A stretch of 64,000 bases of DNA from Candidatus Bipolaricaulota bacterium (GTDB taxonomy: Bacteria > Bipolaricaulota > Bipolaricaulia > M55B111). A program made the position numbers and the translations under genes. Each line of letters opens with the position of its first letter. Within the stretch, counting starts at the first letter, position 1. The DNA is taken from positions 316 through 64,315 of the forward strand of contig JAGXKX010000002.1 in assembly GCA_018335015.1 (NCBI GenBank). The letters run 5' to 3'. Under the pieces are notes generated by a model. It made no database searches. It was not told the origin of the DNA and worked only from the letters and a program-made list of their open reading frames with translations. Positions 6,037 to 50,374 of the stretch are shown here, piece by piece.

Positions 6037-6227
6037 CTCAGTTTTTCAAAACTATTTGGAAGCGAGATGTAGTTCGTAAGCAATAACTATATTTTAATTT
6101 CAACCCTTACCAGGCTGCCGCATTACCTCTAATGCTTAGTTTTAAAGGTTAAATCAGTGGCCAGGTAAGGAGGGCGGGTACAGGTGAAGACTAAACAGCG
6201 ATGTACTACGATGGTGAAATAATTTAG
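6037..6227 (+). repeat. MITE-like long-palindrome element, copy a (subfamily 1)
   Basis: Left end CTCAGTTTTTCAAAAC at 6037. Core hairpin at 6103-6178 (CCCTTACCAGGCTGCCG...GGTTAAATCAGTGGCCAGGTAAGG). Right end GGTGAAATAATTTAG ends at 6227 and overlaps the LacI-gene stop codon (6224-6226). Confidence 0.85.
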
Positions 6228-7231
6228 CCTGCGCTGGCACTCGATTCTCTTATCCTTAACTCCGTATCGAGCTCTATCTTTCGGGGTGTTCGGGCTTTTT
6301 CCGTGCCTTCGATCTCTTCAAATAAGAGGTGGGCTGCCTGGTATCCCATTTCGTAGGGTTGCTGGGCAATTGAGGTAATACTGGGATTGAAGCTCGCGGC
6401 CCATTCCGGATCGTCAAAACCCACGAGCGCGATATCCTCGGGACATTTTACCTCGTGCTCTTTAAAATATCGTAGCACTCCCTCGGTCATCAAATCGTTC
6501 GTGCTAAATATTGCCGTTACTTCCGGGTGATCAGACAGTAGGGACTCGGTTGAAGCGTAAGCACCCTCGACCTCCAGACCGGACTTTTTGATATATTCTT
6601 CCTCTATCTCTATTCCATGGTCTTTCAGGGCGTCTTTATAACCTTCGAGTCTATGTTTAAAACTGGCTATCTCGGTACTTTCCAGGATAATTCCGATGTT
6701 TTCGTGGCCCCGATCAATTAGGTGTTGAATAGCTTTGTATCCGCCTTCCCTGTTATCAGAGAACACTTGATCGACAGTTACTTCCGGCAGTTCTCGATCA
6801 ATACACACTACTGGAAGATCTTTTTCGATAAGAGGCTGGATATTTTCCCCCCCTCCGCCGGTAGGAGAAATAACGAAACCATCTACCCGTTTCGATTCCA
6901 GTAGAGAAATATTTTGGCTTTCCTGGTTCGCGTTCTCGTCGGTATTGCTCAGGATTAAGCTAAATTCGTGTTCTCTTACGCAATCCTCGACCCCCCGGGC
7001 CACCTGAGGGAAGAAAGGGTTCACGATGTCCGATACTACAAGGGCGATGGTCTGGCTTTCCCCTTTGCTGAGCCCCTGGGCGAGAGGATCAGGGTGGTAG
7101 TCAAGTTCTTCTATTGCCCTGTTAACGCGCCCTGTAAGTTCGGGGCTTACGTATCTGGTACCATTTATTACGTGAGAAACAGTTGTTACTGAGACGTCCG
7201 CCAGTTTAGCTACGTCTTTCATCGTTGCCAT
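6224..7231 (-). CDS. LacI family transcriptional regulator
   Basis: The start at ATG 7231 gives MATMKDVAKLADVSVTTVSHVINGTRYVS, a classic LacI HTH, followed by a periplasmic-binding-protein-like sugar-binding domain. The 40-codon track extension to 7351 has no support. Confidence 0.9.
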   Translation of the reverse strand: MATMKDVAKLADVSVTTVSHVINGTRYVSPELTGRVNRAIEELDYHPDPLAQGLSKGESQTIALVVSDIVNPFFPQVARGVEDCVREHEFSLILSNTDENANQESQNISLLESKRVDGFVISPTGGGGENIQPLIEKDLPVVCIDRELPEVTVDQVFSDNREGGYKAIQHLIDRGHENIGIILESTEIASFKHRLEGYKDALKDHGIEIEEEYIKKSGLEVEGAYASTESLLSDHPEVTAIFSTNDLMTEGVLRYFKEHEVKCPEDIALVGFDDPEWAASFNPSITSIAQQPYEMGYQAAHLLFEEIEGTEKARTPRKIELDTELRIRESSASAG

Positions 7232-7247
7232 TCTGAACCACTCCGTA

Positions 7248-7267
7248 AATCGCTTACGCAAGCGATT
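7248..7267. promoter_or_regulatory. candidate LacI-family operator (autoregulatory) in the 5' region of the regulator gene
   Basis: AATCGCTT-ACGC-AAGCGATT has perfect 8-bp inverted arms. It lies 17 nt upstream of the LacI start codon and directly downstream of a TATATT box. Confidence 0.5.
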
Positions 7268-7268
7268 A

Positions 7269-7297
7269 AATATAGCATAAAAACTTGTTTTATACAA
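7269..7297 (-). promoter_or_regulatory. putative sigma70-type promoter of the LacI-family gene
   Basis: On the minus strand, TTGTAT (7292-7297) is followed by a 17-nt spacer and TATATT (7269-7274). The operator begins 2 nt after the -10 box. Confidence 0.35.
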
Positions 7298-7456
7298 AGT
7301 CCTTTCCACGAGAACTAGAAAGTCGGCCGGGAATAAGTCTGCTTGGAGCATTTTTTCGGGGTATTCGCTCTACAATATCGGAACAATATTGTTATACTAT
7401 TATGGTCCGGTACCCAGCAGGAAGAATCTTTCTAAGGGGGTTGAGGAAGAATTTCC

Positions 7457-8026
7457 ATGTTTGAAAGCCTCAAAGGCGAAGAATTCTGGAGGATCGCCCG
7501 GCGTTATTTCGTTCTGAACGGATTTGACGGAATACTGACGGTTCTGGGAATAACGGCGGGCTCTTTTTCCACGGGCGTAGGGGATCCGAAAGTGCTTGTT
7601 ACCTCGAGCCTGGGAGCCGCAATTGCCCTAGGAGTTTCCGGCGTTTCGGGCGCTTATATAACCGAAAAGGCGGAACGACTGAAAAAGTTTAAGGAATTAC
7701 AGCGGGACATGTTATCCGACCTGGAGGGGTCCGTGCATAAAAAGAACGTGACCCAGCGGTCGATAGCTATCTCAATAGTTAACGGGGCGTCTCCCTTTTT
7801 ATGTGCCCTGCTTTCGACCGTACCTTATTTTTTCCCGCTTCTCGGTCTCGGAACTATGGAAATTGCCTATTATGCCTCCGCGGGAGTTGCCCTGTCCCTT
7901 CTGGCTCTATTAGGGGCCTTTCTGGGAAAGATTTCCCGAGAAAGTCTTATCTCCTTCGGGCTTAAGATGGTTGGTGTCGGCGTTCTAACGGCCGTGCTTT
8001 CCCTCACCCTGGGAATTGGAGGATAA
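7457..8026 (+). CDS. VIT1/CCC1-family membrane protein (putative Fe/Mn transporter)
   Basis: 189-aa ORF. It has hydrophobic segments interrupted by an amphipathic EKAERLKKFKELQRDMLSDLE helix, the layout I recall for VIT-family proteins. Confidence 0.65.
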   Translation: MFESLKGEEFWRIARRYFVLNGFDGILTVLGITAGSFSTGVGDPKVLVTSSLGAAIALGVSGVSGAYITEKAERLKKFKELQRDMLSDLEGSVHKKNVTQRSIAISIVNGASPFLCALLSTVPYFFPLLGLGTMEIAYYASAGVALSLLALLGAFLGKISRESLISFGLKMVGVGVLTAVLSLTLGIGG

Positions 8027-8028
8027 AA

Positions 8029-8156
8029 TCTGCCCCTTACCCGACTGCCGTATTATCACTACTGCTGAGTTTCAAAGGTTCGATCAGTTGCCAGGTAAGA
8101 GACAGAGAGCAGTTATTAGGTCGGGTAATTAACTACAGCGGTGGTAAAAAATCGAG
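8029..8156 (+). repeat. MITE-like element, copy b (core plus right arm; canonical left arm missing)
   Basis: Core at 8029-8108 (TCTGCCCCTTACCCGACTGCCG...GGTTCGATCAGTTGCCAGGTAAGAGACAGAGA). Right end GGTGGTAAAAAATCGAG at 8140-8156. It sits between the VIT stop (8026) and the xylA stop (8163). Confidence 0.8.
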
Positions 8157-8162
8157 TTGTGT

Positions 8163-9491
8163 TTACTCCGTCGTAGTGATATAGGAATTTAACAGTCCCC
8201 TTAGCTTCTCCTGCCTCCCGGATTCAAGTTCGATAGGCTCGCTTACGTTCTCCATCACGTGTTCTTCTAGCATTTCGAAGTCCGTATCGGGATCTTTTAT
8301 TTTATTCCCCAGGCTCTCCTGGAAGCTGGAGTAACGTTCTTTCCTGAATTCTTCTAGGACCCCGTCTTCTTTCAATCTCTGAGCCACTTTCAATCCAAAA
8401 GCGAAGGTGTCCATACCGGCAATGTGAGCGATGAAAAGGTCACGAGCCTCGAACGATTCCCGTCTGACTTTGGCATCAAAATTCAGCCCACCTGGAGCCA
8501 GACCATTATTCTTGAGAATTTCGTAGGCTGCCAGAGTAGTGCTGTAAACGTCCGTCGGGAACTCGTCCGTATCCCAGCCCAGCAGGAGATCACCCTGGTT
8601 GGCGTCCACGCTTCCCAGTAAGTCGTTTTCCCTGGCGTAAGCCAGTTCGTGGTGAAAATTGTGACCGGCCAGGGTAGCGTGATTGGCTTCGATATTAGCC
8701 TTGAAGTGGTCTTCAAGGTCGTACTTTCTCAGGAAAGCTGCCACGTGTTCGACGTCAAAATCGTACTGGTGTTTTGTCGGCTCCATCGGTTTTGGTTCAA
8801 GCAGTAATTGGCCGTCAAATCCTATCTTCTTTGCGTGATCTACGGCCATTGCCAGAAACCGAGCAAGGTTGTCCTGTTCCAGGCCGAGGTCGGTATTTAG
8901 AAGCGTTTTGTAACCTTCTCTGCCACCCCAGAATACGTAATTTGAGCCTCCCAGTCTTTTCGTAACTTCGAGAGCTTTTTTGACCTGAGCAGATGCGTAG
9001 GCAAATACGTCGGCGTTTGGAGATGTCGCCGCGCCGTGGGCGTACCTTGGATGCTCGAACAGGTTTGCCGTTCCCCAGAGTAAATCGACGTCGTAGTCTT
9101 CCATCAGTTCTTCGATACGAGAAACGATCTCGTCCAGGTTATCGTTCGTTTCGGCCAGTGTATTTCCCGGTGGGGCGACGTCCCTGTCGTGAAAACAGAA
9201 ATAGTCCAGCCCCATCTTCCCCATAAATTCAAATGCGGCTTCTGCCCGGGCCTTTGCTCTTTCCATCGGGTCGTCTATTTCATCCCATAGTCTGGTGATA
9301 GTTTTTGCCCCGAAGGGATCCGCCCCCCTGGCGGTAAAAGAATGCCAGTAGGCGACGGAAAACCTCAGTTGTTCGGACATGGTCGAGGAACCGACGGTTT
9401 CTTCCGGGTTGTAATGTTTAAACGAGAGAGGGTCTTCCGATTTCCGGCCTTTATATTCTATTTTTCCTACCTCTGGAAAATATTCTTTCAT
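8163..9491 (-). CDS. xylA: xylose isomerase
   Basis: 442-aa ORF with an N-terminus ([31 protein letters not shown], then [10 protein letters not shown]) and length characteristic of XylA. Confidence 0.95.
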
Positions 9492-9506
9492 ATTACTTCT
9501 TACCTC

Positions 9507-10487
9507 CTAGTATTGAGATTTGGTATCCGGTGCAGCAGTCTCGAGAATTTCTACGTTTCTTAGTCCTTCTTCTCCCGGCACTTCGGGATCACGATCCCCG
9601 GTTATAGATTCGACGAAGTCTCTTATTTCCCCCTCGTAGGGGTTTTTCTGAGAAAAATCTAAACTTTCTTCTTTTAAGATAATAGTACCTCCTCCATGGG
9701 GGCCCAGGGTATCTCGTGCTATCGCGGAGCCTTTCCTTCCGTATATCTTAAATTCGGGCTCCGATTCGAATAGAACCGAAGTAGTTAATTCGGCGGTGGC
9801 ACCGGACTCGAACTTTAGATTTACCATTGCTGTCTCGTCGTGGGGACTATTCCAGTAGCTGTTCGCTATTGTGCTATCTATCTCCACTACTTCGCCGCAG
9901 TCGGGAAGCATTGCCCATCGAATCAAATCCAGCCCGTGCGTGCCGATGCCCGCTAAACTCCACCACCTTCCCACGTCGTCGTAGGCTCTCCAATTAGAAT
10001 CGTCCTCGGCCTTAACTGACCACTGAACTCTGACGTGGTGCAGTTTTCCGAGGACTCCATCGTGAACTTTCCTAACTAATTTCCGGTGTCCTCTGTGCCA
10101 GCGCAGGTGGTAAGCCACACCTAGCTTTACTCCGTTGGACCTGCACGCTTCTAGCAAGACTTCTCCGCCTTCGGAACTCGATACCATAGGTTTTTCCATG
10201 AGTACGTGCTTTCCGGCTTGGGCTGCCTGTATTCCGTTTTTCTCGTGTAACCTGTCCGGGGTTGAAATCATTACTGCATCCAAATCAGGGTCTTTCAACA
10301 TCTCTCCGTAGTCGTCGTGGGCGGGGTTGTCGGCCCCGGCGTCATGTTTGGCGGCGAACTCTTTTGCCCTCTCCACCCTTCTGCTGGTCACCCTCCAGAG
10401 CCGCGCCCCTTCGACCTCGCTTATCGCGGGAGCCAAAGACCTGTCGGCGATATTTCCCGGCCCGATTAACCCGAAATTAATTGTCAT
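9507..10487 (-). CDS. Gfo/Idh/MocA family oxidoreductase
   Basis: 326-aa ORF with N-terminal GLIGPGNIADR Rossmann motif. It is co-oriented with xylA, 15 nt away. Confidence 0.9.
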   Translation of the reverse strand: MTINFGLIGPGNIADRSLAPAISEVEGARLWRVTSRRVERAKEFAAKHDAGADNPAHDDYGEMLKDPDLDAVMISTPDRLHEKNGIQAAQAGKHVLMEKPMVSSSEGGEVLLEACRSNGVKLGVAYHLRWHRGHRKLVRKVHDGVLGKLHHVRVQWSVKAEDDSNWRAYDDVGRWWSLAGIGTHGLDLIRWAMLPDCGEVVEIDSTIANSYWNSPHDETAMVNLKFESGATAELTTSVLFESEPEFKIYGRKGSAIARDTLGPHGGGTIILKEESLDFSQKNPYEGEIRDFVESITGDRDPEVPGEEGLRNVEILETAAPDTKSQY

Positions 10488-10656
10488 ATCTTCCGCCTCC
10501 AGTTCGTTAATTCTAGGGATTAATAGGAAGAGTGCAAAATTGGTATTTATACTTCAATCTCTCACAATCGAACAAAAGAGATACTTAATTGATGAACGTT
10601 AACTTTATCATTTTCCTACAGGCTCACTGCGCCGGCGATTGTTAAAAGAGGGTATT

Positions 10657-11053
10657 TATCGAGAGTATCGGCTGGGCAGGGGAGCTGGCCTCCTTTTACT
10701 ACTAACTTCTTGCTGACTGTTCAGGAAAATCCTATCGGAGGCCGAGCGGGCATGGTTCCATGCTTCCTCTGGAAGCATGGGGAGCGAGGCCGAGATCGGA
10801 AGCAGTGAATTCCACGCCGGGGAATTCACCTGCGGTTTTATCGAACAGTGAGCAAGAAGTTTTCCCTAAATTTAGAACCTAAAAGTCAAGAATATAATGA
10901 CAATTATCAACTCGGGCCGGAAGCCCGGAAGTTCTATCGAGCGTATCGGCCGGGCACGGGGACCCGGCCTGCTTTATTTTTCTAAAGGTGCCCGGCCTGC
11001 TTTGTATTGGTTAAAGGGTGGAACCGTGCCCGCTCGGCCTCCGATAGGATTTT
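10657..11053. repeat. cluster of nested inverted and direct repeats (second repeat family or structured RNA locus)
   Basis: 34-nt inverted repeat 10726-10759 / 11020-11053 (33/34). 19-nt inverted repeat 10704-10722 / 10843-10861 (18/19). Direct repeats TATCGAGnGTATCGGCnGGGCA... at 10657 and 10935. Perfect hairpins at 10758-10780 and 10805-10829. Confidence 0.85.
10948..10981 (+). terminator. plus-strand intrinsic-terminator-like hairpin with no upstream plus-strand gene
   Basis: GGCCGGG-CACGGGGA-CCCGGCC is followed by TGCTTTATTTTT. A related copy at 10670-10700 (GGCTGG...CTGGCC then TCCTTTTACT) closes only with G-U pairs on the plus-strand RNA. Confidence 0.45.
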
Positions 11054-11056
11054 GAC

Positions 11057-12040
11057 TTAGTCCGGGGTAAAGGGACAGGCGGCTATACAGGACGAGCAAT
11101 CGCTACCGTTCTCCAGCCAGAACTGGTAGCACCTGTAGTGATCCACGGGCCACCTGATAATACCCCTGTTGTTCGAGGGGCAAGCTGTTTCGATTTCGGG
11201 TTCAGTTCTTGTGGAAATGGCGTCCACTTCGCAGGCGCTGCTGCAGAGTTTGCAGCTATGACATTGGTCGAGCAGAGGAGAATCCACGGGCTCGTCCTCG
11301 ACCATTTCCATATCGGTGAATACTTTACAGATCTTGAGACAGGAACCGAGTTTGGAACTAACGAGAAGACCGTTTCTCCCCAGCCTTCCCAGCCCCGCGT
11401 CCATTGCTAGTGGTATGCTGAGAGCGCCGTCGTTGCCCATTGGAGCGGCTTTATAACCGAGGTGGCGTATGAACTCGCTCATACACGAGATAATGAATGC
11501 CATCTTCGAGTAGGAAACTGCTGAAGCTCTGGCGGCGGAAAATCCCGGCGATTCTCTAATGGTTTCGGGTTTAATCGGTACTATCATAACGACGGCGTAA
11601 TCGTAGTTTAGAAGATGGTCGAGCGGGTTTCCTTCGCGGTCCTTCGTATAGACCCATCTCGGATCAACCTTGGTAACACCGACTGAGCTGACTCCATAAG
11701 CCTTGGCGGCTTTCTTTGTCTCCTTTGTTAGAACCTCGGGGTCTTTACTGGGTGGGCTTAGTATGGGTTTGTCCATTATGTTTTTGTCCTTATCCGGCGT
11801 TTTTGGTTCAAATGCTTCCGTGAAGTAATCGTAAACTGACCAGCCCCCGATAGCCCGGGCCAGTTCAAATGAACTATAACCATCCTCTTTATTTAGTACT
11901 TTGTCGATCCGGTCGTAGGTTCCCTGCTGGTAAAAAGGCGCTTCTTCGTCGTTTTTTATTCTGCCAAATACGTTATCACGACGATCGAATCGGTTATATT
12001 TGTCTTCGTCGACTATCGATTTTGGGAACTGTTTCTTCAT
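11057..12040 (-). CDS. reductive dehalogenase (RdhA) superfamily protein, short cytoplasmic type
   Basis: The C-terminus carries two Fe-S motifs, CHSCKLCSSAC and CYQFWLENGSDCSSCIAACP (CxxCxxCxxxC plus Cx11CxxCxxxCP), as in RdhA and QueG-like enzymes. There is no twin-arginine signal and no adjacent anchor gene. Confidence 0.65.
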   Translation of the reverse strand: MKKQFPKSIVDEDKYNRFDRRDNVFGRIKNDEEAPFYQQGTYDRIDKVLNKEDGYSSFELARAIGGWSVYDYFTEAFEPKTPDKDKNIMDKPILSPPSKDPEVLTKETKKAAKAYGVSSVGVTKVDPRWVYTKDREGNPLDHLLNYDYAVVMIVPIKPETIRESPGFSAARASAVSYSKMAFIISCMSEFIRHLGYKAAPMGNDGALSIPLAMDAGLGRLGRNGLLVSSKLGSCLKICKVFTDMEMVEDEPVDSPLLDQCHSCKLCSSACEVDAISTRTEPEIETACPSNNRGIIRWPVDHYRCYQFWLENGSDCSSCIAACPFTPD

Positions 12041-12110
12041 TAAGCTCCTTCCTGGGTGGGAATTTATTGTCTGCTGTCCGACTTTTACCTCAGACCGTGG
12101 TTTTAACAGG

Positions 12111-12413
12111 CTAAGCTCGATTTACCAGCCTGGTTTTTATCTTTTCTTCGTACTCTGGAAAGTAATCTCCAATCGTGGTTAGGTTGAACTTGGTCAGAAT
12201 GGATTCCTTTGGTTCCCGTTCCAGAAGGAACTTGAAGGACTCCTCGACCAGTTCAGCAGCGCCGATATTATTGGGTGCAATACTCTCGTAAGTTCCTTGA
12301 TCTACCGTAACAGTGTGGTCCGTACCTGATCTCCCTCCGACATCCACGGAGAACACTAGTTCGTCTTCGCTTTCCGCTTCTTTTTGAACATTTATCTCTT
12401 CCAATTCAATCAC
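12111..12413 (-). CDS. hypothetical acidic protein (100 aa)
   Basis: GTG-initiated ORF just downstream of and co-oriented with the RdhA-like gene. I recognise no motif. Confidence 0.55.
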   Translation of the reverse strand: MIELEEINVQKEAESEDELVFSVDVGGRSGTDHTVTVDQGTYESIAPNNIGAAELVEESFKFLLEREPKESILTKFNLTTIGDYFPEYEEKIKTRLVNRA

Positions 12414-12541: not shown

Positions 12542-12750
12542 CTGACTTAGTTCTTTTGCCAACGACTTATTTATATCTCTGGGCCGGATAACTCCTCTCT
12601 GCCCCTTACCTGGCTGCCGGGATTACCTCTAATATTAAGCTTAAAAGGTTAAATCAGTTGCCAGCTAAGGGGCAGAGAGCTCCTAGTAAAAAATGAAGCC
12701 AGTGTTTATGAATTAAGTTTAGCTTTGAATACGATGAGGGAAAATTTGAG
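12542..12750 (+). repeat. MITE-like element, copy c (subfamily 2)
   Basis: Left end CTGACTTAGTTCTTTTGCC. The core outer stem 12595-12614 pairs with 12660-12679 (19/20). Right arm carries AATTAAGTTTAGCTTTGAATACGATGAGGGAAAATTTGAG ending at 12750. Confidence 0.85.
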
Positions 12751-12776
12751 TCCGAGGATCCATAGGGTGATATAGG

Positions 12777-13953: not shown

Positions 13954-14156
13954 CTCAGTTCTTTCAGTATTAGATGGAAACGAAAAGTTATTCCCAATGG
14001 CTGACTGCATTTTATTCCCTAACCCTTTGCCCCTTACCTGGCTGCCGGATTTTGTCTACTACTAAGTTTTAGAAGGTTAAATCAGTTGCCAGGTAAGGGG
14101 CAAAGGGTAATTAAACCAGTTAAACAATTAAGTCCTGCGGCGGTGAAGGAACAGAG
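13954..14156 (+). repeat. MITE-like element, copy d
   Basis: Left end CTCAGTTCTTTCAG at 13954. The core outer stem 14023-14042 pairs perfectly (20/20) with 14088-14107. Right end GGTGAAGGAACAGAG ends at 14156. Confidence 0.9.
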
Positions 14157-14235: not shown

Positions 14236-14325
14236 GCCGAGGTGGCGGAATTGGCAGACGCGCATGGTTGAGGGCCATGTGGACATTTTTCGTCCGTGCG
14301 GGTTCAAGTCCCGCCCTCGGCACCA
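14236..14325 (+). tRNA. tRNA-Leu (anticodon GAG), type II with long variable arm, CCA encoded
   Basis: Acceptor GCCGAGG/CCTCGGC. Anticodon stem CATGG/CCATG with loop TTGAGGG. Variable arm TGGACATTTTTCGTCCGT. T arm GCGGG-TTCAAGT-CCCGC, then ACCA. Confidence 0.95.
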
Positions 14326-22077: not shown

Positions 22078-22322
22078 CTCAGTTCATTTTAGGCTAAAGA
22101 GTAGCAATGTGTTAACATTCAGTCCCTTCGCCATTGTCAGAAGGGGACAGTAATTCATGGCCAATAATTGCGCTTTATCTTGCGGGCCTTCTGTCGCTTA
22201 CCTGGCTGCCGGTTTACCTTTACTGCTAGGTTTTGTTAGATCAGTTGCCAGATAGGCGGCAGAGAGAAATTACCAACACTAATTGAGAATTCTCAGGGCT
22301 TGCTCTGGTGATGAATCTGCTG
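22078..22322 (+). repeat. MITE-like element, copy e (longer, diverged)
   Basis: Left end CTCAGTTCATTTTAGG at 22078. Core at 22189-22267 (TTCTGTCGCTTACCTGGCTGCCGG...TTAGATCAGTTGCCAGATAGGCGGCAGAGA). Right end GGTGATGAATCTGCTG ends near 22322. Confidence 0.75.
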
Positions 22323-24422: not shown

Positions 24423-24625
24423 CTCAGATCTTCCACCGTCGTATGAAAGCGAAACTTAATTGTGAGTATCGATTTTATTTTTTCACTACTAGCTCTCTAC
24501 CCCTTAGCTGGCAACTGATTTAACCTTTAAAACTCAGCAGGAGTCAAAATCCGGCAGCCAGCTAAGGGGTAGAGAGCATTTATCCGAACCAGATAGCTAA
24601 ATCTGCCGTTGGTGAAAGATCTGAG
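24423..24625 (-). repeat. MITE-like element, copy f (subfamily 2, inverted orientation)
   Basis: Termini CTCAGATCTTCCACCGTCG (24423-24441) and CCGTTGGTGAAAGATCTGAG (24606-24625). The core outer stem 24492-24512 pairs perfectly (21/21) with 24557-24577. It starts 7 nt after the S9 peptidase stop. Confidence 0.9.
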
Positions 24626-25154: not shown

Positions 25155-25407
25155 CGAATACCTCCTTTAGTACCTTTAGTGTGTTCCAAGTCTCAGTTTT
25201 TCTCCAATTCGGGCGCTCGAACTCTGCCGGCTGTCGCTATTCAGTTTCGGTTAAAATAAGTATGAATCCCTGACGTTCTGTTGGACGTATCCTGTGACCA
25301 AGCGGGGGGTCCGTCCTGTTCGGTTCACTCTAAATCGTCTCTGAAGCCCCCGCCTTTAAAGTATTAGTTAATTAGGTGAATTTCAGGATTGGAGGAACTC
25401 ATTTGGA

Positions 25408-25608
25408 ATCAGTTCTTCTCACCACTATCCGGAGCGAGTTTTAGGTCATAAGAAAGAATTATATTGTTTAGTTCATGCCTCCTGCCCCTTATCTGGCTGC
25501 CGGATTTTGTCTACTGGTAGGATTTTAAGGTTAAATCAGTTGCCAGATAAAGGGCAGGAGGCAAATGAGCCCAAGTGAACAATGTACGACAATGGTGAAA
25601 GAACTGAT
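25408..25608 (+). repeat. MITE-like element, copy g (subfamily 1)
   Basis: Termini ATCAGTTCTTCTCACCAC and ATGGTGAAAGAACTGAT. The core outer stem 25477-25497 pairs with 25542-25562 (20/21). TATATT box at 25460-25465. Confidence 0.9.
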
Positions 25609-25614: not shown

Positions 25615-25646
25615 ATAAAAAGGGGGCCCGGTAAGATCCGGGCCCC
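25615..25646 (-). terminator. Rho-independent terminator of hppA
   Basis: On the minus strand, GGGGCCCGG-ATCTTA-CCGGGCCCC is followed by CTTTTTAT. It lies 28 nt after the hppA stop. Confidence 0.75.
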
Positions 25647-29588: not shown

Positions 29589-29754
29589 CTCGGTCTCTTC
29601 ACCAAAGACCGATTTATCTGGCCCTACTTCTAGTTCTCCCCCCTTAGATAGCTGCCGGATTTCGTAGACTGGCGATTTTTAAAGGTTAAATCAGTTGCCA
29701 GCTAAGGGGGGAGAACTAGAAGTAAAGAAATGAACTGTTAGAAAGACCTTAGAG
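29589..29754 (+). repeat. MITE-like element, copy h (short right arm)
   Basis: Left end CTCGGTCTCTTCACCAAAG. The copy-specific outer stem CTTCTAGTTCTCCCCCC (29627-29643) pairs perfectly (17/17) with 29706-29722. The conserved loop is GCTGCCGGATTTCG...GGTTAAATCAGTTGCCAG. Confidence 0.85.
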
Positions 29755-31808: not shown

Positions 31809-32056
31809 CGCCCGTCTTTCCCAGTACCGTGCCTAATTGTCTAGCCCTTGTTCGCTACCTTCCGCTTGCCCGGCGACTTATTTAACTTTTAAATATAGCA
31901 GTAGACGTAATCCCGGCAGCCAGATAAGCTGTAGAGGGCTTGTGAGATAAAGTCAATTACCCCGCCCCGATCTTTGGGGCTTACTCGGCGAGTTTTGGTT
32001 AATGATTGGGCCAAACTACGTCCACCTTAGCATAAGTGGTAAAAGAACTGGCTGAG
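31809..32056 (-). repeat. MITE-like element, copy i (inverted orientation, degenerate with an insertion in the stem)
   Basis: The RC reads CTCAGCCAGTTCTTTTACCAC...TATCTGGCTGCCGGGATTACGTCTACTGCTATATTTAAAAGTTAAATAAGTCGCCGGG. Core at about 31843-31942. The element end is 1 nt from the ruvB stop codon (32058-32060). Confidence 0.65.
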
Positions 32057-41757: not shown

Positions 41758-41763
41758 ACGAGG

Positions 41764-42969: not shown

Positions 42970-42993
42970 TTTACCTCCTATGCGGTCTAGTGG

Positions 42994-44181: not shown

Positions 44182-44294
44182 TTATGCCCCCTAATAATTT
44201 CCGGATACGGAAAAAGTAGCCTATTCCTGCCCCCACGGGCCTAAATTTATATCCGAGCAACCGGTCTTCCCCGACAGTGAAAATCTATTTCGAG

Positions 44295-44699
44295 TTATGA
44301 CTCCTCTAATATAAGATATTCTCGACTTTCTCCTTTTCGCCACTCCCTTTCCACAAGGTGGAGTTTTTCTCTCACTGAATTGAGTGCGGCCTCGATCTCT
44401 AACTCGTGTGAAATTATTGGAACGAAATCCTTACTTATTTCCGCCAGCTTAGGACCCATCTGGTGGGCCAATAGTACGTTGGCAGATTTCGCCTTTAACA
44501 GGGAAGAAATGTTTTTTGCCTTTAACTCCTCGCCCGATTCCTTATCTTTGGGATTTTCTAGTGAGATATTTTCAACTTCCTCGATAAACTCAAAATCCTG
44601 TACGTTTATTTTGTATATGTGGAAGCAGGGTGCATTACCAAAATGGTCTTCGAATAAAAGTTCCCCCTCAGAAGTTCCGCAAGCTACGATTGGTTTCAT
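44295..44699 (-). CDS. NifB/NifX-family (dinitrogenase FeMo-cofactor-binding fold) small protein
   Basis: ATG 44699 has a GAGGAGG RBS. The N-terminus MKPIVACGTSEGELLFEDHFGNAPCFHIY resembles the NifX/NifB C-terminal domain family. The track extension is not supported. Confidence 0.65.
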   Translation of the reverse strand: MKPIVACGTSEGELLFEDHFGNAPCFHIYKINVQDFEFIEEVENISLENPKDKESGEELKAKNISSLLKAKSANVLLAHQMGPKLAEISKDFVPIISHELEIEAALNSVREKLHLVEREWRKGESREYLILEES

Positions 44700-44957
44700 T
44701 TTTCCTCCTCTGGTCACTTGGCCGGTAAAGATTATGTCCACAAGTTTTGCCGATATCAACATAAAAGACTGCCGAAATTAGCCCCTGCCCCAGTATTTGC
44801 GCCGGGGTCTCGGGATTTTTGAAATGGAAAGCGCGTTTGAACGAGAAAGATCTAACTCCCGTGCGGTTGCTTTAGTTAATCTGTACAATATAATCTTTTT
44901 CATAACAATTCTTGTTAATTAACAGGACCACGGTTGAATCAGGGGAGGAATAGAAAT

Positions 44958-45767
44958 TTGTCCAAGGGTAACGAATATCTCGAAGAAGTAATTGGCCTCA
45001 CGAGAAAAGCAGGTGCCGAGGTACTAAAGTACTACGATAAAAATTATTCTATAGAGGCGAAAAAGGACGACAGCCCGGTAACAGAGGCGGACTACGCCTC
45101 TGAGGATATATTAATTAGCGGTTTAAAAGACACTGAACCTGGAATGGTTGCCGAAGAAGCCGGTAGGGTTCCGGGTGAGACTCAAGAAAGCTACTGGATA
45201 GTAGATCCACTGGACGGGACACAGGATTTCATAGATAAGACAGGAGAGTTTTCCGTAATGGTTGGTCTGCTGGTGAATGGAGAACCCACGCTCGGGGTCG
45301 TATTTGCACCGGCCCGGGAAAAACTCTGGTACGCGGTTAAAGGCGGGGGCGCATATCTGCTCGAGGGTGGAACCGAATCAAGGATTGAGGTCGCCGGAAA
45401 AGGGAACCTGGAGGATTACGTATTGATTGCCAGCCGGAACCACTTCAGCCCTCGCGACGAAGCTGTTGCCGATAAGCTGGGAGTTCAGGATATTATCCGG
45501 ATGGGGAGCCTCGGAATTAAATTCTGTGCAATTGCTGAAGGACGAGCGGATCTCGTCTATTATACCACCGATCGTCTGGGAATCTGGGATTGTTGCGCTC
45601 CACAAGTTATTCTGGAAGAAGCTGGCGGAGAAGCTTTTGACGTAAAGGGAAGAGGGTTGGTTTACGATCTGGATCGAAGAAGGATGGCCCACGGAATTGT
45701 AGGTATAGGTGGCGAAAACCGGCGAGAAGTAGTAAAAATTCTGGATAGTAACATCACTGGATTTTAG
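44958..45767 (+). CDS. inositol monophosphatase / CysQ-type 3'(2'),5'-bisphosphate nucleotidase family protein
   Basis: AEEAG, WIVDPLDGTQDF and WDCCAP motifs. TTG 44958 has GGAGG 9 nt upstream, and the track start is TTG 44934. Confidence 0.8.
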   Translation: MSKGNEYLEEVIGLTRKAGAEVLKYYDKNYSIEAKKDDSPVTEADYASEDILISGLKDTEPGMVAEEAGRVPGETQESYWIVDPLDGTQDFIDKTGEFSVMVGLLVNGEPTLGVVFAPAREKLWYAVKGGGAYLLEGGTESRIEVAGKGNLEDYVLIASRNHFSPRDEAVADKLGVQDIIRMGSLGIKFCAIAEGRADLVYYTTDRLGIWDCCAPQVILEEAGGEAFDVKGRGLVYDLDRRRMAHGIVGIGGENRREVVKILDSNITGF

Positions 45768-45803
45768 CGATAGTAGTTATAGGAAAAGATAGATTAACAA
45801 TGA

Positions 45804-46003
45804 CTCAGTGTTTTCACCACCGTCGGAAGCAAGGTGAAGGTCACTAGGAATCACTATATTTTTTAGTTCAAGCCTCCTGCCTCTTACCTGGCTGCCGGAT
45901 TTCGTCTACTGGTAGAATTTTAAGGTTAAATCAGTTGCCAGGGAAGAAACAGGAGGCACAGGAGGACAAAACAATGATGTACGGGGATGGTGAAAGAACT
46001 GAG
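45804..46003 (+). repeat. MITE-like element, copy j (subfamily 1) flanked by a 5-bp direct repeat
   Basis: Termini CTCAGTGTTTTCACCACC and ATGGTGAAAGAACTGAG. Core at 45872-45957. TATATT box at 45855-45860. AATGA occurs immediately outside both ends (45799-45803 and 46004-46008). Confidence 0.9.
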
Positions 46004-46123
46004 AATGATTAACGATCATCCGTTGGAGTTTTAGATAAGTTGTCTAAATTTTATCTCGTTCGAGAGAACCTCTATAGACTAAGCCGTTTCCCGGTTCAAA
46101 TAGACTAGGCCGAGGAGGTAAAT

Positions 46124-46942
46124 ATGGTAATATTGAGCTGGTTTAAATCCATAAACCCTGTCTCCCAGGCGCTTGTTGCCACCGGCTTTACGTGGTTCCT
46201 GACGGCCGGCGGAGCAGGATTAGTGTTCTTTTTTAGAGAGGTGAACCGTAAGGTTCTTGATTTCATGCTCGGGTTTGCCGCCGGAGTGATGGTAGCGGCT
46301 AGTTACTGGTCGTTACTGGCTCCGGCAATCGATATGGCTGCCGATTCGGTCCTTCCCGCTTTTATCCCGGCGGCGGTTGGATTTATGTTTGGCGGTATAT
46401 TTCTTCGAGTTATCGATAGGTACATGCCCCACCTCCACCTTGGTTTTCCCATGGAGGATGCGGAGGGTGTAAAAACCAGTCTGCACAGAAGCGTTCTATT
46501 GATTCTGGCTATAACGATTCACAACATTCCAGAGGGGCTGGCGGTGGGGGTAGCTTTCGGGGCACTGGCCGCCGATTTACCCACTGCGACTTTAGGAGGA
46601 GCTATGGCACTGGCTCTCGGAATAGGAATTCAAAACTTTCCGGAAGGTACTTCGGTCTCTGTACCATTGCGTAGGGAAGGGTTTTCTCGGCGACGCAGTT
46701 TCTGGTACGGACAGCTCTCCGGGGTGGTTGAGCCGATATCGGGTTACCTGGGAGCGATAGCGGTTATAGTAGTTAGGCCACTTTTACCCTACGCTCTCGC
46801 TTTTGCAGCGGGAGCGATGATATTCGTCGTGGTCGAGGAACTGGTGCCTGAAGCTCAGGTCGAAGGAAATGCGGATATAGCTACAATGGGAGTAATGGTC
46901 GGGTTCACGATAATGATGACTCTTGACGTCGCTCTCGGTTAA
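46124..46942 (+). CDS. ZIP family divalent metal transporter (ZupT-like)
   Basis: 272-aa polytopic ORF with an [10 protein letters not shown] motif. Confidence 0.85.
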
Positions 46943-47119
46943 CCGGGTTCTGGGTCCTTTTTAGGTCGGTCCGAACGAAAACCTGCCCCCTGAGATCCGG
47001 TGTTTACCGTTCTGGCATTTACATTTCCATTCATTTATGATATTAAAAAAGCCAACCGATTTAGCGGTTCTCAAGATAGGGGCAACATAATTTCAGGAGC
47101 GCGGACTTAGCGTAAAATA

Positions 47120-48343
47120 ATGTTGAACGTAAAAGACGTTAAAAGAGACTTTCCCGTATTGAAAAATCGGGACGTGATATATCTGGATAACGCCGCCACA
47201 ACACTTACTCCAGAGCCGGTGATTCAGTCCCTTTCAGACTATTACGAAAACCTTGGCGCCAGCGTCCACAGGGGAATTTATCACCTGGCTGACGAGACTA
47301 CCGAAAAGTACGAAAGCTCTCGTAACAGAGTGGCCGATTTTATCGGAGCGGACTCTCCTGACGAAATTGTTTTCACCAAGAACTGCACGGAAGGGCTAAA
47401 TATAATTGCTTATTCCTTACATCTCTGGTCGGATATGGAAGGTAAAATACTTGTGACCGAAATGGACCACCACAGTAATATTCTTCCCTGGAAGTTTATG
47501 GTCGATGGGTCAGAGAGATTTGAACTGGAATACGTCGACGTGACGAAAGATGGGGTACTGGATATTGAGGACTACAAAAGCAAGCTATCCTCCGAGACCG
47601 TAGCCGTGGGGTTTCCCGGGATTTCGAACGTCCTGGGAACTGTTAATCCGGTAGAAAAAATTACGGACCTGGCTCACGAAAACGATGCCCTGGTGATTAT
47701 GGATGGAGCGCAATGGCTGCCACACAGGCCGTTCGACATCTTGGAACACGACCTTGACTTCCTGACTTTTTCCGCCCACAAGATGTTAGGACCGACCGGC
47801 CTGGGAGTTCTTTACGGCAAGAAAGAATTACTTAACCGGATGCCACCTCCTTTTGGAGGCGGGGAAATGGTTCTAAACGTTACCCGGGGGGAGGTTAAGT
47901 GGAGCGATCCTCCTCAAAAATTTGAACCAGGAACTACCCCGATTGCGCAAATAGTTGCTTTTGGATCCACGTTGAAGTACCTGGAGGGGCTTGAGATTGC
48001 CGAGATTGAAGAACACGTTAACGGGTTGACCCGGAGGGCTGTGAATAGGCTATCGGGGATACCGTATGTCAATATATACGGTCCCCGGGAGGGTGAACCT
48101 CGGGGAGGCCTTGTCTCGTTTAACGTTGAAGGAATTCATCCGCATGACCTGGCCACCGCGCTTGACTCTCTCGACAATATCGCCATCCGAGCAGGCCTTC
48201 ATTGTGCTCAGCCCCTGCACGAAGTAATGGGACTAAATTCTTCGGCCCGGGTGAGTTTTTACGTCTACAACGCTTCCGAGGACGTCGATCGGTTTATCGA
48301 CGCCGTTAAAGAAGCGAAAAAAATCCTGGGTGGTGAAAAATGA
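47120..48343 (+). CDS. sufS: cysteine desulfurase, SufS type
   Basis: The PLP lysine region SAHKMLGPTG and the catalytic cysteine loop RAGLHCAQP. It is followed by sufU. Confidence 0.9.
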   Translation: MLNVKDVKRDFPVLKNRDVIYLDNAATTLTPEPVIQSLSDYYENLGASVHRGIYHLADETTEKYESSRNRVADFIGADSPDEIVFTKNCTEGLNIIAYSLHLWSDMEGKILVTEMDHHSNILPWKFMVDGSERFELEYVDVTKDGVLDIEDYKSKLSSETVAVGFPGISNVLGTVNPVEKITDLAHENDALVIMDGAQWLPHRPFDILEHDLDFLTFSAHKMLGPTGLGVLYGKKELLNRMPPPFGGGEMVLNVTRGEVKWSDPPQKFEPGTTPIAQIVAFGSTLKYLEGLEIAEIEEHVNGLTRRAVNRLSGIPYVNIYGPREGEPRGGLVSFNVEGIHPHDLATALDSLDNIAIRAGLHCAQPLHEVMGLNSSARVSFYVYNASEDVDRFIDAVKEAKKILGGEK

Positions 48344-48711
48344 AGGACAAGCCAAAGATTTATAACCAAGACGTGTTGCACCATTATCAAAACCCATACA
48401 ATAAGGGTAAATTGGATGACCCCGATTTCAGCGTGACGGAGGAAAATCCAAACTGTGGGGACAGAATTACCCTGCAGTTAAAGCTAAAAGGAGACGAAAT
48501 CAGTAAAGTGAAATTTGACGGTCACGGTTGCGTGCTCAGCATCGGTGCCGCCTCAATACTTACTCAGATGGTCAGGGGATTAAGTGTCGGAGAGGCTTCG
48601 GAGTTAACTTTAGACGATCTGGTAGATAATATGGGAAATCCACCCAAGATGAGAAGAAACTGTGTTTCTTTATCCCTGGACGCTTTGAAAGATGCTCTTT
48701 CCGAGTGGTGA
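48340..48711 (+). CDS. sufU: SufU/IscU-type Fe-S cluster assembly sulfur-transfer protein
   Basis: Conserved cysteines in NPNCGD, GHGCVLS and RRNCVSLS. It overlaps sufS by 4 nt. Confidence 0.85.
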   Translation: MKDKPKIYNQDVLHHYQNPYNKGKLDDPDFSVTEENPNCGDRITLQLKLKGDEISKVKFDGHGCVLSIGAASILTQMVRGLSVGEASELTLDDLVDNMGNPPKMRRNCVSLSLDALKDALSEW

Positions 48712-48929
48712 GTTTCGGGGTTTATCAAAAACCCGATAATTGTGTGAACTAAGTTCAAGACGAAAAACCATTTTTTGAACGCGCTCATTTGCCAGATTCC
48801 CCTTCTTTACCCTAGAATCTTTGTGAATATAGAATTACCGATGTTAGTCCTGGGTTGTATTTTAGTTTAAAATATATTTTCCGGTGAATTTTATGGTTCT
48901 GGCTTGCAAATGAAAGGAGGAGGTAAAAT

Positions 48930-50132
48930 ATGCAAAAATTTGATTACGTTATAGTTGGAGCTGGCCTGGCGGGTGCTTCTGCAGTAAAAGGGGTTCGAGA
49001 AGAAGACCAGGAAGGATCGATCCTGCTTGTCGGCGAGGAAGAAGAGTTTCCCTATAACCGGCCACCGCTATCAAAGGACCTGTTGCTTGGTGATAAAACA
49101 GTAGGAGAAATAAGCATCGAGGACGAAGCTTATTTCACCGAGCATGAAGTTGAGCTGGAACTGGGGACCGAAATTACCGAGATTGACCCCGATAACAATC
49201 TGGTCACCAATAGCCGTGGTGAAAGTTATGAATACGAAAAGTTACTGCTTTCCACCGGAGGGTCTCCCAGGAAGCTGGATATTCCCGGCGGGCAACTCGA
49301 AGGAGCCAATTACTATAGGTATCTGGATGACTACCGTTCGCTGAGTGAAGGTATGAAAAGTGCAAATCGGGCAGTGGTGATAGGCGGCGGTTTTATCGGG
49401 TCGGAGATTACGGCCGGCCTCAACCTTAACGATATAGAAGTTTCCATGGTTTTTCCGGAGGATTATTTGCTGGAGAGAGTGTTTCCGAAGGAACTAGCGG
49501 CGGTAGTCCAGCGAGACTACGAGGACCGGGGAGTGAACGTGGTTGCGGGAGATAAACCGGTTCGGTTCAGAAAAGAATCTGACGGATTCGAGGTAAAAAC
49601 CGATCAGGGAAAGATACTTCAGGGCGACCTGCTGATCGTGGGAATAGGAATTTCCCCCGAAGACGATCTGGCAAAGGGGGCCGAGCTGAAAGTTTTTGAC
49701 GGGATAGAAGTCGACAAATATCTCCAGACCTCAGATACTGATATTTACGCGGCCGGTGACAACGCGTACTTTCCGTTTACCGATCTGGGTGAAAGTACTC
49801 GGGTGGAGCACTGGGATAACGCCAAGAGTCAAGGGAAGCTGGCCGGGCGAAATATGGCTGGTGCCGAAGAAGCTTACAATTACGTTCCCTACTTTTTCTC
49901 AGATCTGTTCGATTTCGGGTTTGAAGCAGTAGGAGAAGTGAATTCTAACTTAAATAACTTCGTCGATTGGAAGAAGAAAGGAGAAAAGGGAGTCGGTTAC
50001 TATCTCTCCGGGGACGGAAAGGTCAAAGGGGTTCTATTGCTTGGAGTTTGGGGAGCGAAGGGCGATGCGCGCGACCTAATAAAAAGCGAAGAAAGCTTTA
50101 CGAGAGAGGAACTCGTCGGGAAGATTGGCTAA
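48930..50132 (+). CDS. NAD(P)/FAD-dependent oxidoreductase (ferredoxin reductase / AIF-like)
   Basis: VIVGAGLAGASA, VVIGGGFIGSE, AAGD and EHWDNA motifs. Confidence 0.8.
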   Translation: MQKFDYVIVGAGLAGASAVKGVREEDQEGSILLVGEEEEFPYNRPPLSKDLLLGDKTVGEISIEDEAYFTEHEVELELGTEITEIDPDNNLVTNSRGESYEYEKLLLSTGGSPRKLDIPGGQLEGANYYRYLDDYRSLSEGMKSANRAVVIGGGFIGSEITAGLNLNDIEVSMVFPEDYLLERVFPKELAAVVQRDYEDRGVNVVAGDKPVRFRKESDGFEVKTDQGKILQGDLLIVGIGISPEDDLAKGAELKVFDGIEVDKYLQTSDTDIYAAGDNAYFPFTDLGESTRVEHWDNAKSQGKLAGRNMAGAEEAYNYVPYFFSDLFDFGFEAVGEVNSNLNNFVDWKKKGEKGVGYYLSGDGKVKGVLLLGVWGAKGDARDLIKSEESFTREELVGKIG

Positions 50133-50173
50133 ACGGATCCTAAAACAGGTGGCCCGTGGTTAAAGTCCTTTGA

Positions 50174-50374
50174 CTCTGTTCTTTCACAACGGCGGATTTG
50201 TCTGATTGGTCCGAATAGCTACTTCCTGTCCCTTACCTGGCTGCCGGATTCTGGCTACTGCTAAACTTTAAAGGTTAAACAGTTGCCAGGTAAAGGGCAG
50301 GAAGCCAGTGGTAAAAAATGAAGTCAACCTTCGTAAATTAAGTTTCGCTTTCATGCGATGGTAAAGGATTTTAG
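50174..50374 (+). repeat. MITE-like element, copy k (subfamily 2)
   Basis: Left arm CTCTGTTCTTTCACAACGGCGGATTTGTCTGATTGGTCCGAATAG aligns closely with the left arm of copy f. Core at 50222-50304. Right arm AATTAAGTTTCGCTTTCATGCGATGGTAAAGGATTTTAG. Confidence 0.9.

Follow-up and report, generated by a model that had tools for sequence, protein, structure and literature searches.

The window, i.e., the whole 64-kb stretch of Candidatus Bipolaricaulota DNA analyzed here, is a housekeeping region: every scanned ORF either is a housekeeping gene or lacks a Pfam match. Scattered between these genes, frequently near their 3′ ends, are eleven copies (a to k) of a repeat of about 200 bp that share one layout, in which inverted termini (TIRs) and variable arms surround a central stem-loop core. 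The genes flanking the copies are functionally unrelated to each other. The copies and adjoining features are as follows:

6037..6227, + strand: copy a; A/B-arm subfamily, left terminus degraded; core at 6099-6177, E 1.1e-21
6224-7351, minus strand: ORF of a LacI-like gene, its stop codon overlapped by the last bases of copy a
8029..8156, + strand: copy b; truncated, lacking left arm and left TIR; between convergent gene ends; core at 8029-8111, E 1.6e-22
12542..12750, + strand: copy c; C/D-arm subfamily, degraded termini; between divergent genes; E 4.1e-24
13954..14156, + strand: copy d; third arm group; 2 mismatches in each TIR; flanks TGTTT/CGTTT, a 4/5 match
14236-14325: tRNA-Leu(GAG), with copy d 80 nt upstream
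22078..22322, + strand: copy e; old and diverged, left arm extended; E 1.1e-19
24423..24625, - strand: copy f; C/D-arm subfamily, best-preserved palindrome; TIR variant CTCAGATCTT(C/T)CACC; E 2.6e-25
25408..25608, + strand: copy g; A/B arms; inserted so that the T-tract of the H+-PPase terminator lies a few nt upstream; E 3.1e-25
25623-25646, minus strand: H+-PPase terminator
29589..29754, + strand: copy h; C/D type, right arm shortened; E 1.3e-20
31809..32056, - strand: copy i; old and diverged; E 1.5e-19
45804..46003, + strand: copy j; A/B arms, the reference intact copy; TIR-L 45804-45818, stem-loop core ~45873-45957, TIR-R 45989-46003 (0 mismatches); perfect 5-bp target-site duplication AATGA at 45799-45803 and 46004-46008
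50174..50374, + strand: copy k; C/D arms, degraded right terminus; E 2.9e-23

Scanned with an nhmmer profile built on the ~88-nt core, the window gives exactly 11 matches (E 2.6e-25 to 1.5e-19), with nine matches on the plus strand and two, f and i, on the minus strand, bearing out the copies, positions and two inversions listed in the first-pass annotation. The copies range from 128 to 248 nt and together span 2,195 nt, or 3.4% of the window, as first estimated, at a density of ~1 per 6 kb; a twelfth lies just beyond the window edge, and further arm-only relics of the family are not detectable in the window. With as many as 3 mismatches tolerated, the 16-mer TTAAAGGTTAAATCAG is found at 11 positions vs. 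0.84 expected, nine of these inside copies. Pairwise identity among the window copies is only 74-80%. A mechanical ORF map yields 18 intergenic gaps longer than 150 bp, ten of which hold a copy (11 in about 19 were proposed earlier), and copy b occupies a gap of 136 bp. The claim that the largest gaps are all occupied stands: each genuine gap of at least 290 bp holds a copy, with the sole exception of 10488-11056, which is taken up by a different repeat.

The TIRs are 15-17 nt long, CTCAGTTCTTTCACC, optionally extended to CTCAGTTCTTTCACC(A), and GGTGAAAGAACTGAG, with 0-3 mismatches in the better window copies and 0-2 in most intact copies from the window and at least six MAGs. Inverted termini had been ascribed to every copy; they are evident in the better ones and degraded in a, b, c, e, h and i. 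Core score drops in step with TIR integrity across the window copies, as expected under neutral decay after insertion. The arms fall into at least three subfamilies: the a/g/j and c/f/k sets recognized from the start, and a third that seems to comprise d, e and, less clearly, i. Copies d and h, initially placed between the first two sets, are reassigned: d looks like part of the third group, and h has arms of the c/f/k type with the right one shortened. Arms are modular and in some copies chimeric, e.g., in L036. The core, by contrast with the variable arms, consists of a ~21-bp stem (21-27 bp) enclosing a nearly invariant, asymmetric loop of ~45 nt; the inner stem, CTTACCTGGC/GCCAGGTAAG, is invariant and, together with the loop, common to all arm subfamilies and all genomes. 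The hairpin proposed at the center is real, with folding z-scores of -3.9 and -8.0 and stem pairing in 89.8% of cells, vs. 80.5% in shuffles and 32-46% when slid, and 14 of 22 stem pairs have changed on both sides. No reading frame is open through all copies, and the translated core matched a single hypothetical ORF in the protein database.

Intact copies are bounded by direct duplications of 5 bp. Six of 25 pairs of flanks are perfect (AATGA, TGGAA, TTGGG, TGCAA, TTAGA and ATCAA, a variable sequence) and three more agree at 4 of 5 positions; control offsets of 10 and 15 give no perfect 5-mer match. Clean duplications are confined to about one third of intact copies. The 10 bases flanking each end are 70-72% A+T, vs. 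51.5% for the window. The 9:2 count of orientations was correct, but the weight given to it as a bias was unjustified (two-sided binomial p≈0.065, not significant), and orientation shows no bias relative to flanking transcription: among co-directional contexts, four copies are sense and three antisense.

The family is present in at least six Candidatus Bipolaricaulota/Acetothermia MAGs from hypersaline sites, where flanks differ and the insertions are independent. Sites e to i, all filled in the window, were compared with L162, L163, L164, L166 and L167. L162, whose orthologous genes are 81-85% (~83%) identical to those of the window at the nucleotide level, has an orthologous copy at i, a half-deleted one at h and only relic arms at g and f, with a solo TIR plus arm retained at g. 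The other four are empty at whichever of these sites they cover: f is empty in L163, L164 and L167 (49-77 bp there vs. 294 bp in the window), g in L166 and L167, and i in all four. No replacement sequence occupies the empty sites of close relatives. A second filled/empty pair is formed by L018 (filled) and L031 (empty), and L002 and L008 carry different subfamilies in the same intergenic region. Occupation of the same positions in all relatives with no presence/absence polymorphism, named in the first-pass annotation as part of what would speak against mobility, is not what is found.

A conserved regulatory motif that never moved and was inherited at fixed intergenic positions could account for the orthologous copies shared by two species (sites i and h, with a relic at g). 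The target-site duplications, the empty sites in four relatives, the different subfamilies at the L002/L008 region and the lack of functional relation among flanking genes all oppose this reading, as do non-orthologous copies that are more alike across species than the genomes themselves; the duplications and the presence/absence pattern already contradict it, and it is extremely improbable. The cross-species copies in question, f vs. L010 (arms) and j vs. L035 and L036, are 90-97% identical, compared to 81-85% for orthologous genes and 74-80% among window copies, as would be expected if a few master lineages were active. The absence of copies at the same sites in ~80%-identical relatives points to a recent expansion in the window lineage. 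Contigs from related genomes terminate inside copies, and the family thereby explains some assembly breaks.

In typical MITEs, the termini and not the center are best conserved; in these elements, the best-conserved part is the center, not the termini, and this is not explained by transposition alone. Between copy i and its L162 orthologue, the core is ~80% identical, the arms have diverged much further and one arm of copy i carries ~70 nt of extra sequence; the contrast between core and arms leaves room for post-insertion constraint or gene conversion. The repeats could have spread as MITEs and then been kept as a host-level functional module, with selection acting on each inserted copy, as a structured RNA (an sRNA, mRNA stabilizer, processing site or attenuator-like hairpin) or as a DNA sequence bound by a nucleoid or regulatory protein. 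The copy i core would fit this reading, as would a loop nearly invariant over subfamilies and species, the presence of copies in over half of the large gaps between genes of a housekeeping region and a mini hairpin within the core, CCTGG-CTG-CCGGG followed by TTTTGT, that competes with the long stem. Selection on each copy is hard to reconcile with orthologues that have freely lost one half (g and h in L162), close relatives with nothing in place of copies at all five sites and an orientation indifferent to flanking transcription. Promoter-like and terminator-like sites are not enriched in the elements (11 vs. 9.2 and 12 vs. 11.9 expected, respectively). An Rfam scan of the 64-kb window brings only tRNA-Leu to the gathering threshold; copies f and g yield mir-4520 as the top match, at 37 bits vs. 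a threshold of 90, and matches below threshold (E up to 10) are only miRNA-hairpin noise. A host-level module is, on balance, unlikely.

The behavior of the loop bears on the same question. Its orientation with respect to the arms is reversed in L010, L035 and L017_1520 and at the orthologous site h, where the arm and its side are unchanged in L162; copy f and L010 carry loops in opposite orientation despite near-identical arms. Stem mismatches comprise 44 G·T and 47 A·C, with no strand asymmetry and no G·U excess. The inversions and the balance of G·T and A·C fit a role in duplex DNA or none and argue against a strand-specific RNA; the stem covariation could arise mechanically, via quasi-palindrome correction, instead of by selection. 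Tentatively, and with somewhat less than even confidence, the conserved core may be a cis-acting double-stranded-DNA module needed for propagation and functional in either orientation, where the transposase or an architectural protein of the host could bind, such that only elements retaining the core would multiply. A bolder reading, which we consider unlikely, is that the invariant ~65 bp of the core (the inner stem and the asymmetric loop) are more than passenger DNA and constitute a functional, orientation-switchable module spread by the MITE, serving as a platform for a nucleoid/architectural protein or as a small regulatory RNA or attenuator-like hairpin, with orientation toggled by inversion between the stem halves. 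If so, the element would rewire intergenic regions by the dozen in a genome that is small and streamlined.

A hairpin with a covarying stem as the most conserved part, chimeric arms that recall BIME mosaics (L036) and dense intergenic copies often near gene 3′ ends also evoke REP/REPIN-like palindromes, moved as single-stranded hairpins by a RAYT enzyme of the IS200/IS605 type (Y1), with the central hairpin as the recognized unit and the outer inverted repeats incidental. Y1 transposases, however, need no TIRs and make no duplications, whereas variable 5-bp direct duplications surround the outer TIRs here; a core lacking any arm sequence was never seen; the unit is ~90 nt vs. 20-40 nt for REP, and its stem base has no GTAG/CGTC tag; and the strands behave symmetrically, whereas REP recognition is strand-specific. 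Nor is there a RAYT or TnpA_Y1 gene in the window or in the fetched loci, making this route very unlikely. Two other classes were rejected. PATEs carry subterminal hairpins at both ends, have no TIR or duplication, insert 3′ of a fixed tetra- or pentanucleotide and are linked to the HEARO and IS605-orfB RNA motifs; IS200/IS605-derived PATEs or omega-RNA-bearing ends are at odds with variable duplicated 5-mers and no Rfam match at the gathering threshold. Integron attC sites are imperfect palindromes ending in GTTRRRY, arrayed with promoterless cassettes beside intI; the copies are scattered singly among housekeeping genes, and their stem base lacks a GTTRRRY box.

Most probably, the repeats are a family of non-autonomous DNA transposons (MITEs) peculiar to a halophilic clade of Candidatus Bipolaricaulota, uncultured bacteria of salt lakes. 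They are small (within the limit of about 600 bp for MITEs), non-coding, interspersed and multi-copy, with TIRs, a duplication of fixed length and insertion polymorphism; the MITE-like reading of the first-pass annotation is strengthened by the 5-bp target-site duplications, which that annotation had not seen, by filled, degraded and empty sites and by insertions in at least six MAGs. A DDE-type transposase encoded outside the window would bind the 15-17-bp TIRs, excise or copy the ~200-bp element and insert it into AT-rich intergenic DNA via a 5-bp staggered cut, whose repair leaves the direct duplications at the ends of intact copies. Inserted copies decay through substitution and internal deletion, and the ~45-nt loop now and then inverts in situ, perhaps by recombination or template switching between the stem halves. 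As annotated before, no transposase, RAYT or TnpB Pfam match was found among the scanned window ORFs, nor among annotated genes of overlapping and syntenic contigs. No autonomous element with the same termini turned up in the window or in ~350 kb of related loci (~242 kb of MITE-bearing loci from related MAGs and ~110 kb of syntenic loci), and a metagenome scan for the element gave chance-level matches only; IS copies usually drop out of MAG assemblies.

MITE families are common in bacteria, and this element is of an ordinary kind, notable mainly for its density and its very conserved central hairpin; it does not overturn the current understanding of MITEs. To our knowledge, Candidatus Bipolaricaulota (Acetothermia) are known solely from MAGs and their mobile DNA is essentially undescribed. 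What is new is that some copies, one of them at an orthologous site, carry the loop inverted with respect to their arms, and that mismatches in the stem lack strand asymmetry; the conserved center and its flip/flop offer a handle on what a MITE needs beyond its termini to propagate. The family also lends itself readily to telling strains and species apart in hypersaline metagenomes. It has no match in plasmid or phage collections, Rfam or the searchable literature and, judged against these, is provisionally regarded as previously undescribed, in line with the first-pass annotation.

The closest parallels lie among short repeats of other phyla. Correia elements (NEMIS/CREE) of Neisseria are ~100-160 bp long, with hundreds of intergenic copies that make up 1-2% of the genome and a central IHF site. 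They resemble the present family in being non-autonomous and intergenic, with TIRs, subfamilies and no known host transposase, but have 26-bp TIRs and a TA duplication, vs. 15-17-bp TIRs and 5 bp in a Bipolaricaulota host; the long covarying hairpin with an asymmetric loop at the center is also unlike Correia, the two are not known to be similar in sequence, and assignment to that family was rejected on TIR length, duplication and host. The bcr1 repeats of the Bacillus cereus group, reportedly ~155 bp with a stable predicted hairpin and a 5-bp duplication at the ends (Okstad et al. 2004), are likewise MITE-like with no known transposase, but are said always to duplicate TTTAT, whereas the 5-mer here is variable, and their sequence and host are unrelated. 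ERIC/IRU, YPAL, RUP and BOX are similar as ~100-170-bp imperfect palindromes in intergenic regions or 3′-UTRs, with size variants produced by internal indels; they share no known sequence similarity with the family, and most have other duplications and enzymes (RUP: IS630, TA). REPINs and BIMEs are also hairpin-forming, very abundant, intergenic and mosaic, but REPINs lack both TIRs and target duplication and require a flanked RAYT gene; the Bipolaricaulota elements differ in all three respects. For the flip/flop, the precedents are hairpin-associated small inversions in non-coding chloroplast DNA and the flip/flop isomers of parvovirus terminal hairpins, in which a short loop between inverted-repeat stems flips. 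As there, the loop occurs in both orientations and flips recurrently at one locus, and recombination or template switching within the 21-27-bp stem may be responsible; unlike there, the conserved 45-nt loop forms the core of a transposon and is carried by a MITE.

All 11 intervals listed in the first-pass annotation, lettered a to k from left to right, carry one composite element. A profile of its central ~88 nt, the core, built from the 11 window copies and rerun on the window, returns exactly 11 strong matches (E 2.6e-25 to 1.5e-19), and, with up to 3 mismatches allowed, a 16-nt segment taken from the core is found at 11 places vs 0.84 expected from shuffles. Together the copies cover 2,195 nt, the 3.4% of the window originally claimed. 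The earlier estimate that copies fill 11 of about 19 gaps longer than 150 bp needs slight correction: a mechanical ORF map of the window gives 10 of 18, with copy b filling a 136-bp gap. The companion claim, that large gaps hold either a copy or a second repeat, stands, as the only large genuine gap in the window without a copy, 10488-11056, is occupied by a different repeat. A twelfth copy lies outside the window, ~3.7 kb left of its position 1, with a PK_C-domain gene on one side and a DUF433 gene on the other (15725-15808 of L159; L numbers denote loci or contig stretches of related MAGs); the density therefore extends past the window. Each window ORF that was scanned is either a housekeeping gene or lacks any Pfam hit; a transposase, RAYT or TnpB domain appears in none of them, as first noted. 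Rfam and ARAGORN yield a single hit in the window, tRNA-Leu(GAG) at 14236-14325, 80 nt downstream of copy d.

Nine copies lie on the plus strand and two (f and i) on the minus strand. This count agrees with the first-pass annotation; the weight that it placed on a shared orientation is not borne out (two-sided binomial p≈0.065, not significant). Copies in co-directional contexts are sense to transcription in four cases and antisense in three. A replication-linked orientation bias was dropped: the 9:2 split falls short of significance, and in this region GC skew simply tracks gene strand.

From outside to inside, a full copy consists of terminal inverted repeats (TIRs) of 15-17 nt, CTCAGTTCTTTCACC(A) ... 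(T)GGTGAAAGAACTGAG, two non-palindromic arms of ~35-70 nt, a stem of ~21 bp and a loop of ~45 nt. Copies a, g and j have common "A/B" arms, and c, f and k common "C/D" arms, matching the two subfamilies initially recognized; copies d and h, then called intermediate, are not: h is of the C/D type with a shortened right arm, and d forms a third group with e and, less clearly, i. Additional arm sets and chimeras (e.g., L036) occur in other genomes. The right arm of copy b fits either arm type about equally, and no claim is made that b is a "flop" isomer. Size variants share the same termini: two are longer, with extra internal DNA (L009 163-607, 445 nt; L019 418-687, 270 nt), and two are shorter, ~102-108 nt, with the core absent or partial (L014 358-459, L031 925-1032), so that longer derivatives and core-less ones also belong to the family.

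The family is very probably a MITE, i.e., a miniature non-coding transposon mobilised in trans, that depends on a DDE transposase, which would insert the element through a 5-bp staggered cut. Perfect 5-bp direct repeats flank six of the 25 copies that have both termini, and three more have flanks matching at 4 of 5 positions; when the comparison is shifted outwards by 10 or 15 nt, none of the 25 copies matches perfectly. The six perfect duplications all differ: AATGA at copy j, and TGGAA, TTGGG, TGCAA, TTAGA and ATCAA elsewhere. The ten bases on either side of copies are 70-72% A+T vs 51.5% for the window. Some reconstructed target sites (L019 5332-5532, L026 4648-4849 and the flanks of copy j) are short palindromes or repeats about the 5-mer, e.g., AAAGTTTAA-TTGGG-TTAAAACTTT and TAGTTT..TGCAA..AAACTA, and the element may favour symmetric targets that are hairpin-like or AT-rich.

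Filled, degraded and empty sites were found by syntenic comparison of the H+-pyrophosphatase gene region with five relatives. The window stretch carries five copies, whose insertion places are called sites e to i:

22078-22322, plus strand, copy e
24423-24625, minus strand, copy f
25408-25608, plus strand, copy g
29589-29754, plus strand, copy h
31809-32056, minus strand, copy i

In L162 (JAGXLB01, 81-85% nucleotide identity), site i holds a full orthologous copy, site h a half-deleted one, site g a solo terminus and arm alone, and site f an arm fragment at the contig end. L163, L164, L166 and L167 have no core match over 10-22 kb (about 65-82% nucleotide identity, BLAST segments); the gap at site f is 49-77 bp in the relatives without a core match vs 294 bp in the window, and that at site g 93 bp in L166 and L167 vs 519 bp. 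Another site is filled in L018, and L031 has a short gap there. The presence/absence polymorphism on which the mobile reading had been made to depend is thus found, both among L162, L163, L164, L166 and L167 and between L018 and L031, and together with the 5-bp duplications and AT-rich targets it supports the MITE-like interpretation first proposed. Separately, ~250 bp between copy g and a 4HBT thioesterase gene (25155-25407) have no counterpart in L162, L166 or L167 and resemble no other repeat found in this analysis. An arm of copy i (31900-32000) has ~70 nt more than its L162 orthologue, with a small hairpin of its own (CCCCAAAGATCGGGG), explained either by nested insertion or by loss from L162.

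Non-orthologous copies from different species are 90-97% identical, a level above both that of orthologous genes between those genomes (81-85%) and that of copies inside the window (only 74-80%). This similarity is explained by a small number of master lineages that propagate and may have been exchanged between co-occurring species. Across the window copies, core score and terminus integrity fall in parallel, as expected for neutral decay after insertion.

That conservation is stronger in the centre than at the termini is not explained by transposition alone. The inner ten stem base pairs, CTTACCTGGC/GCCAGGTAAG, and the asymmetric loop, TGCCGG(G)ATTT..CTAC..TTTTAAGGTTAAATCAGT, show almost no variation across all subfamilies, and the outer eleven stem pairs covary: among 46 distinct copies, 89.8% of stem cells are paired vs 80.5% when shuffled and 32-46% with partners slid, 14 of 22 stem pairs show changes on both sides, and double-sided changes fill 119 cells vs 41 expected. 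G·T and A·C mismatches are equally frequent in the stem (44 and 47); neither strand is privileged, which argues against a strand-specific RNA. A mini hairpin within the core, CCTGG-CTG-CCGG(G) followed by ATTTTGTCT (25491-25515, with counterparts at that position in other copies), cannot form together with the long stem and resembles a weak terminator or an alternative structure of attenuator type. The long stem itself has no T-run after it, and a terminator or promoter role was rejected, since a 10-kb stretch with five copies shows no enrichment of promoter-like or terminator-like sites.

Inversion of the loop relative to the arms is a new observation. If copies are oriented by the loop, L010 has arms that are the reverse complement of those of copy f: they are 97% and 90% identical in reverse, and the core gives a forward alignment at 89.5%. 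This reversal also distinguishes L035 from copy j and is seen for two copies on one contig (L017). At site h, terminus and arm match on the same side in the window copy and its L162 orthologue, and the loop orientation is opposite; the loop therefore flips in situ, likely because the two stem halves recombine or replication switches template between them. Hairpin-associated small inversions occur in other systems. Such a process can mechanically produce "compensatory" stem changes, so the covariation is not proof of selection.

The preferred explanation for the conserved centre is that the core would be a cis-acting duplex-DNA site required for propagation, and its independence of orientation would agree with strand symmetry and with the existence of flip/flop isomers. 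The chief rival reading, that each inserted copy has a host-level function, finds some room in orthologous copy i, which kept ~80% core identity as its arms diverged much further, but orthologous copies are freely half-deleted and some relatives have no copies at all, both of which count against it.

Other repeats accompany the main family. A second interspersed repeat, unrelated to it, occupies 10700-11056 and has nested inverted repeats in addition to the following:

10726-10765 and 11014-11053, inverted arms of 40 nt, AAAATCCTATCGGAGGCCGAGCGGGCATGG...
10657 and 10935, direct repeats

Its pieces recur in L003, L010, L011, L014, L018, L020 and L029 and past the right end of the window (L158 13311-13405), often adjoining main-family copies; it is probably a second MITE-like family. 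A third repeat, in inverted copies of ~220 bp (31-250 and 1040-1254), encloses a peroxiredoxin gene (404-976) in L030 31-1254 (JBDGQU010000112.1), which looks like a composite or paired-insertion structure; a main-family copy lies 150 nt beyond it.

Window proteins are identical to those of the Candidatus Bipolaricaulota MAG GCA_018335315.1 and also match GCA_036625785.1 and GCA_036626155.1, with 99.8-99.9% DNA identity of the window to the matching MAGs. In a one-genome-per-species collection, an exact core 20-mer matched 37 stretches, of which 35 fall in six MAGs, five labelled Bipolaricaulota/Acetothermia and one, CAZYPS01, deposited as Thermotogae, which has orthologous segments in common with Bipolaricaulota loci. 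Isolate names (GSL, Tobar, DAL-Ass) suggest that the six MAGs come from hypersaline sites. One further stretch is a true core copy (E 1.6e-12) on a contig binned as Candidatus Hydrogenedentota (L034 347-427, JAWODE010000042.1), owing either to mis-binning or to transfer between phyla; the last, in Psychrobacter, is a chance match. Contigs of related MAGs end inside repeat fragments (L162 13050-13127, end of JAGXLB010000005.1; L158 13311-13431, end of JAGXKH010000041.1), and the repeats are therefore a likely cause of assembly breaks in Bipolaricaulota MAGs.

The first-pass annotation recognized no named family, and the searches agree. In Rfam, only the tRNA-Leu passes gathering in the window, the copies giving sub-threshold miRNA-hairpin noise at E up to 10; BLAST finds no similarity in plasmid and phage records; and the literature searched does not link Bipolaricaulota or Acetothermia to MITEs or REPs and holds no relevant mention of the terminal sequence. 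REP/REPIN, IS200/IS605-derived elements and attC sites each differ from this family in a defining feature: it has TIRs and variable 5-bp duplications, and no Y1 transposase was found in the window or the annotated loci.

The full-length element around a transposase that the first-pass annotation suggested looking for was not found: neither the window nor ~350 kb of related loci holds an ORF-bearing element with these termini. A metagenome scan with the 15-nt TIR pattern CTCAGWTCTTTCACC, too short a pattern, gave at least 120 chance matches, none with a core or second TIR, and searches of viral contigs using the two core halves plus a TIR of 18 nt yielded nothing beyond chance matches within coding DNA of phages. 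The translated core alignment (..AYLAAGI..RLNQLPGKRQ..) matched one hypothetical 65-aa ORF in a protein database, with no transposase lead. Bipolaricaulota loci contain no TIR pairs at IS distance, multi-copy segments >350 bp only in orthologous regions, and long inverted repeats 0.6-3.5 kb apart only around the L030 peroxiredoxin gene, formed by the other repeat; a weak PHROG scan of 124 ORFs shows no transposase family among the best 25 of 104 families.

IS1380, IS701, ISH3, IS1634 and part of IS3 make 4-6-bp duplications, and the Tn3, Tn7 and Mu groups 5-bp ones; the TG or GGGG termini of the latter three groups are unlike the CTCAG termini found here. These duplication lengths offer a lead to the transposase rather than a test. 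The family, a new one of a familiar kind from a phylum about which little is known, is notable for its density, its conserved flip/flop core and an autonomous partner that is still missing.
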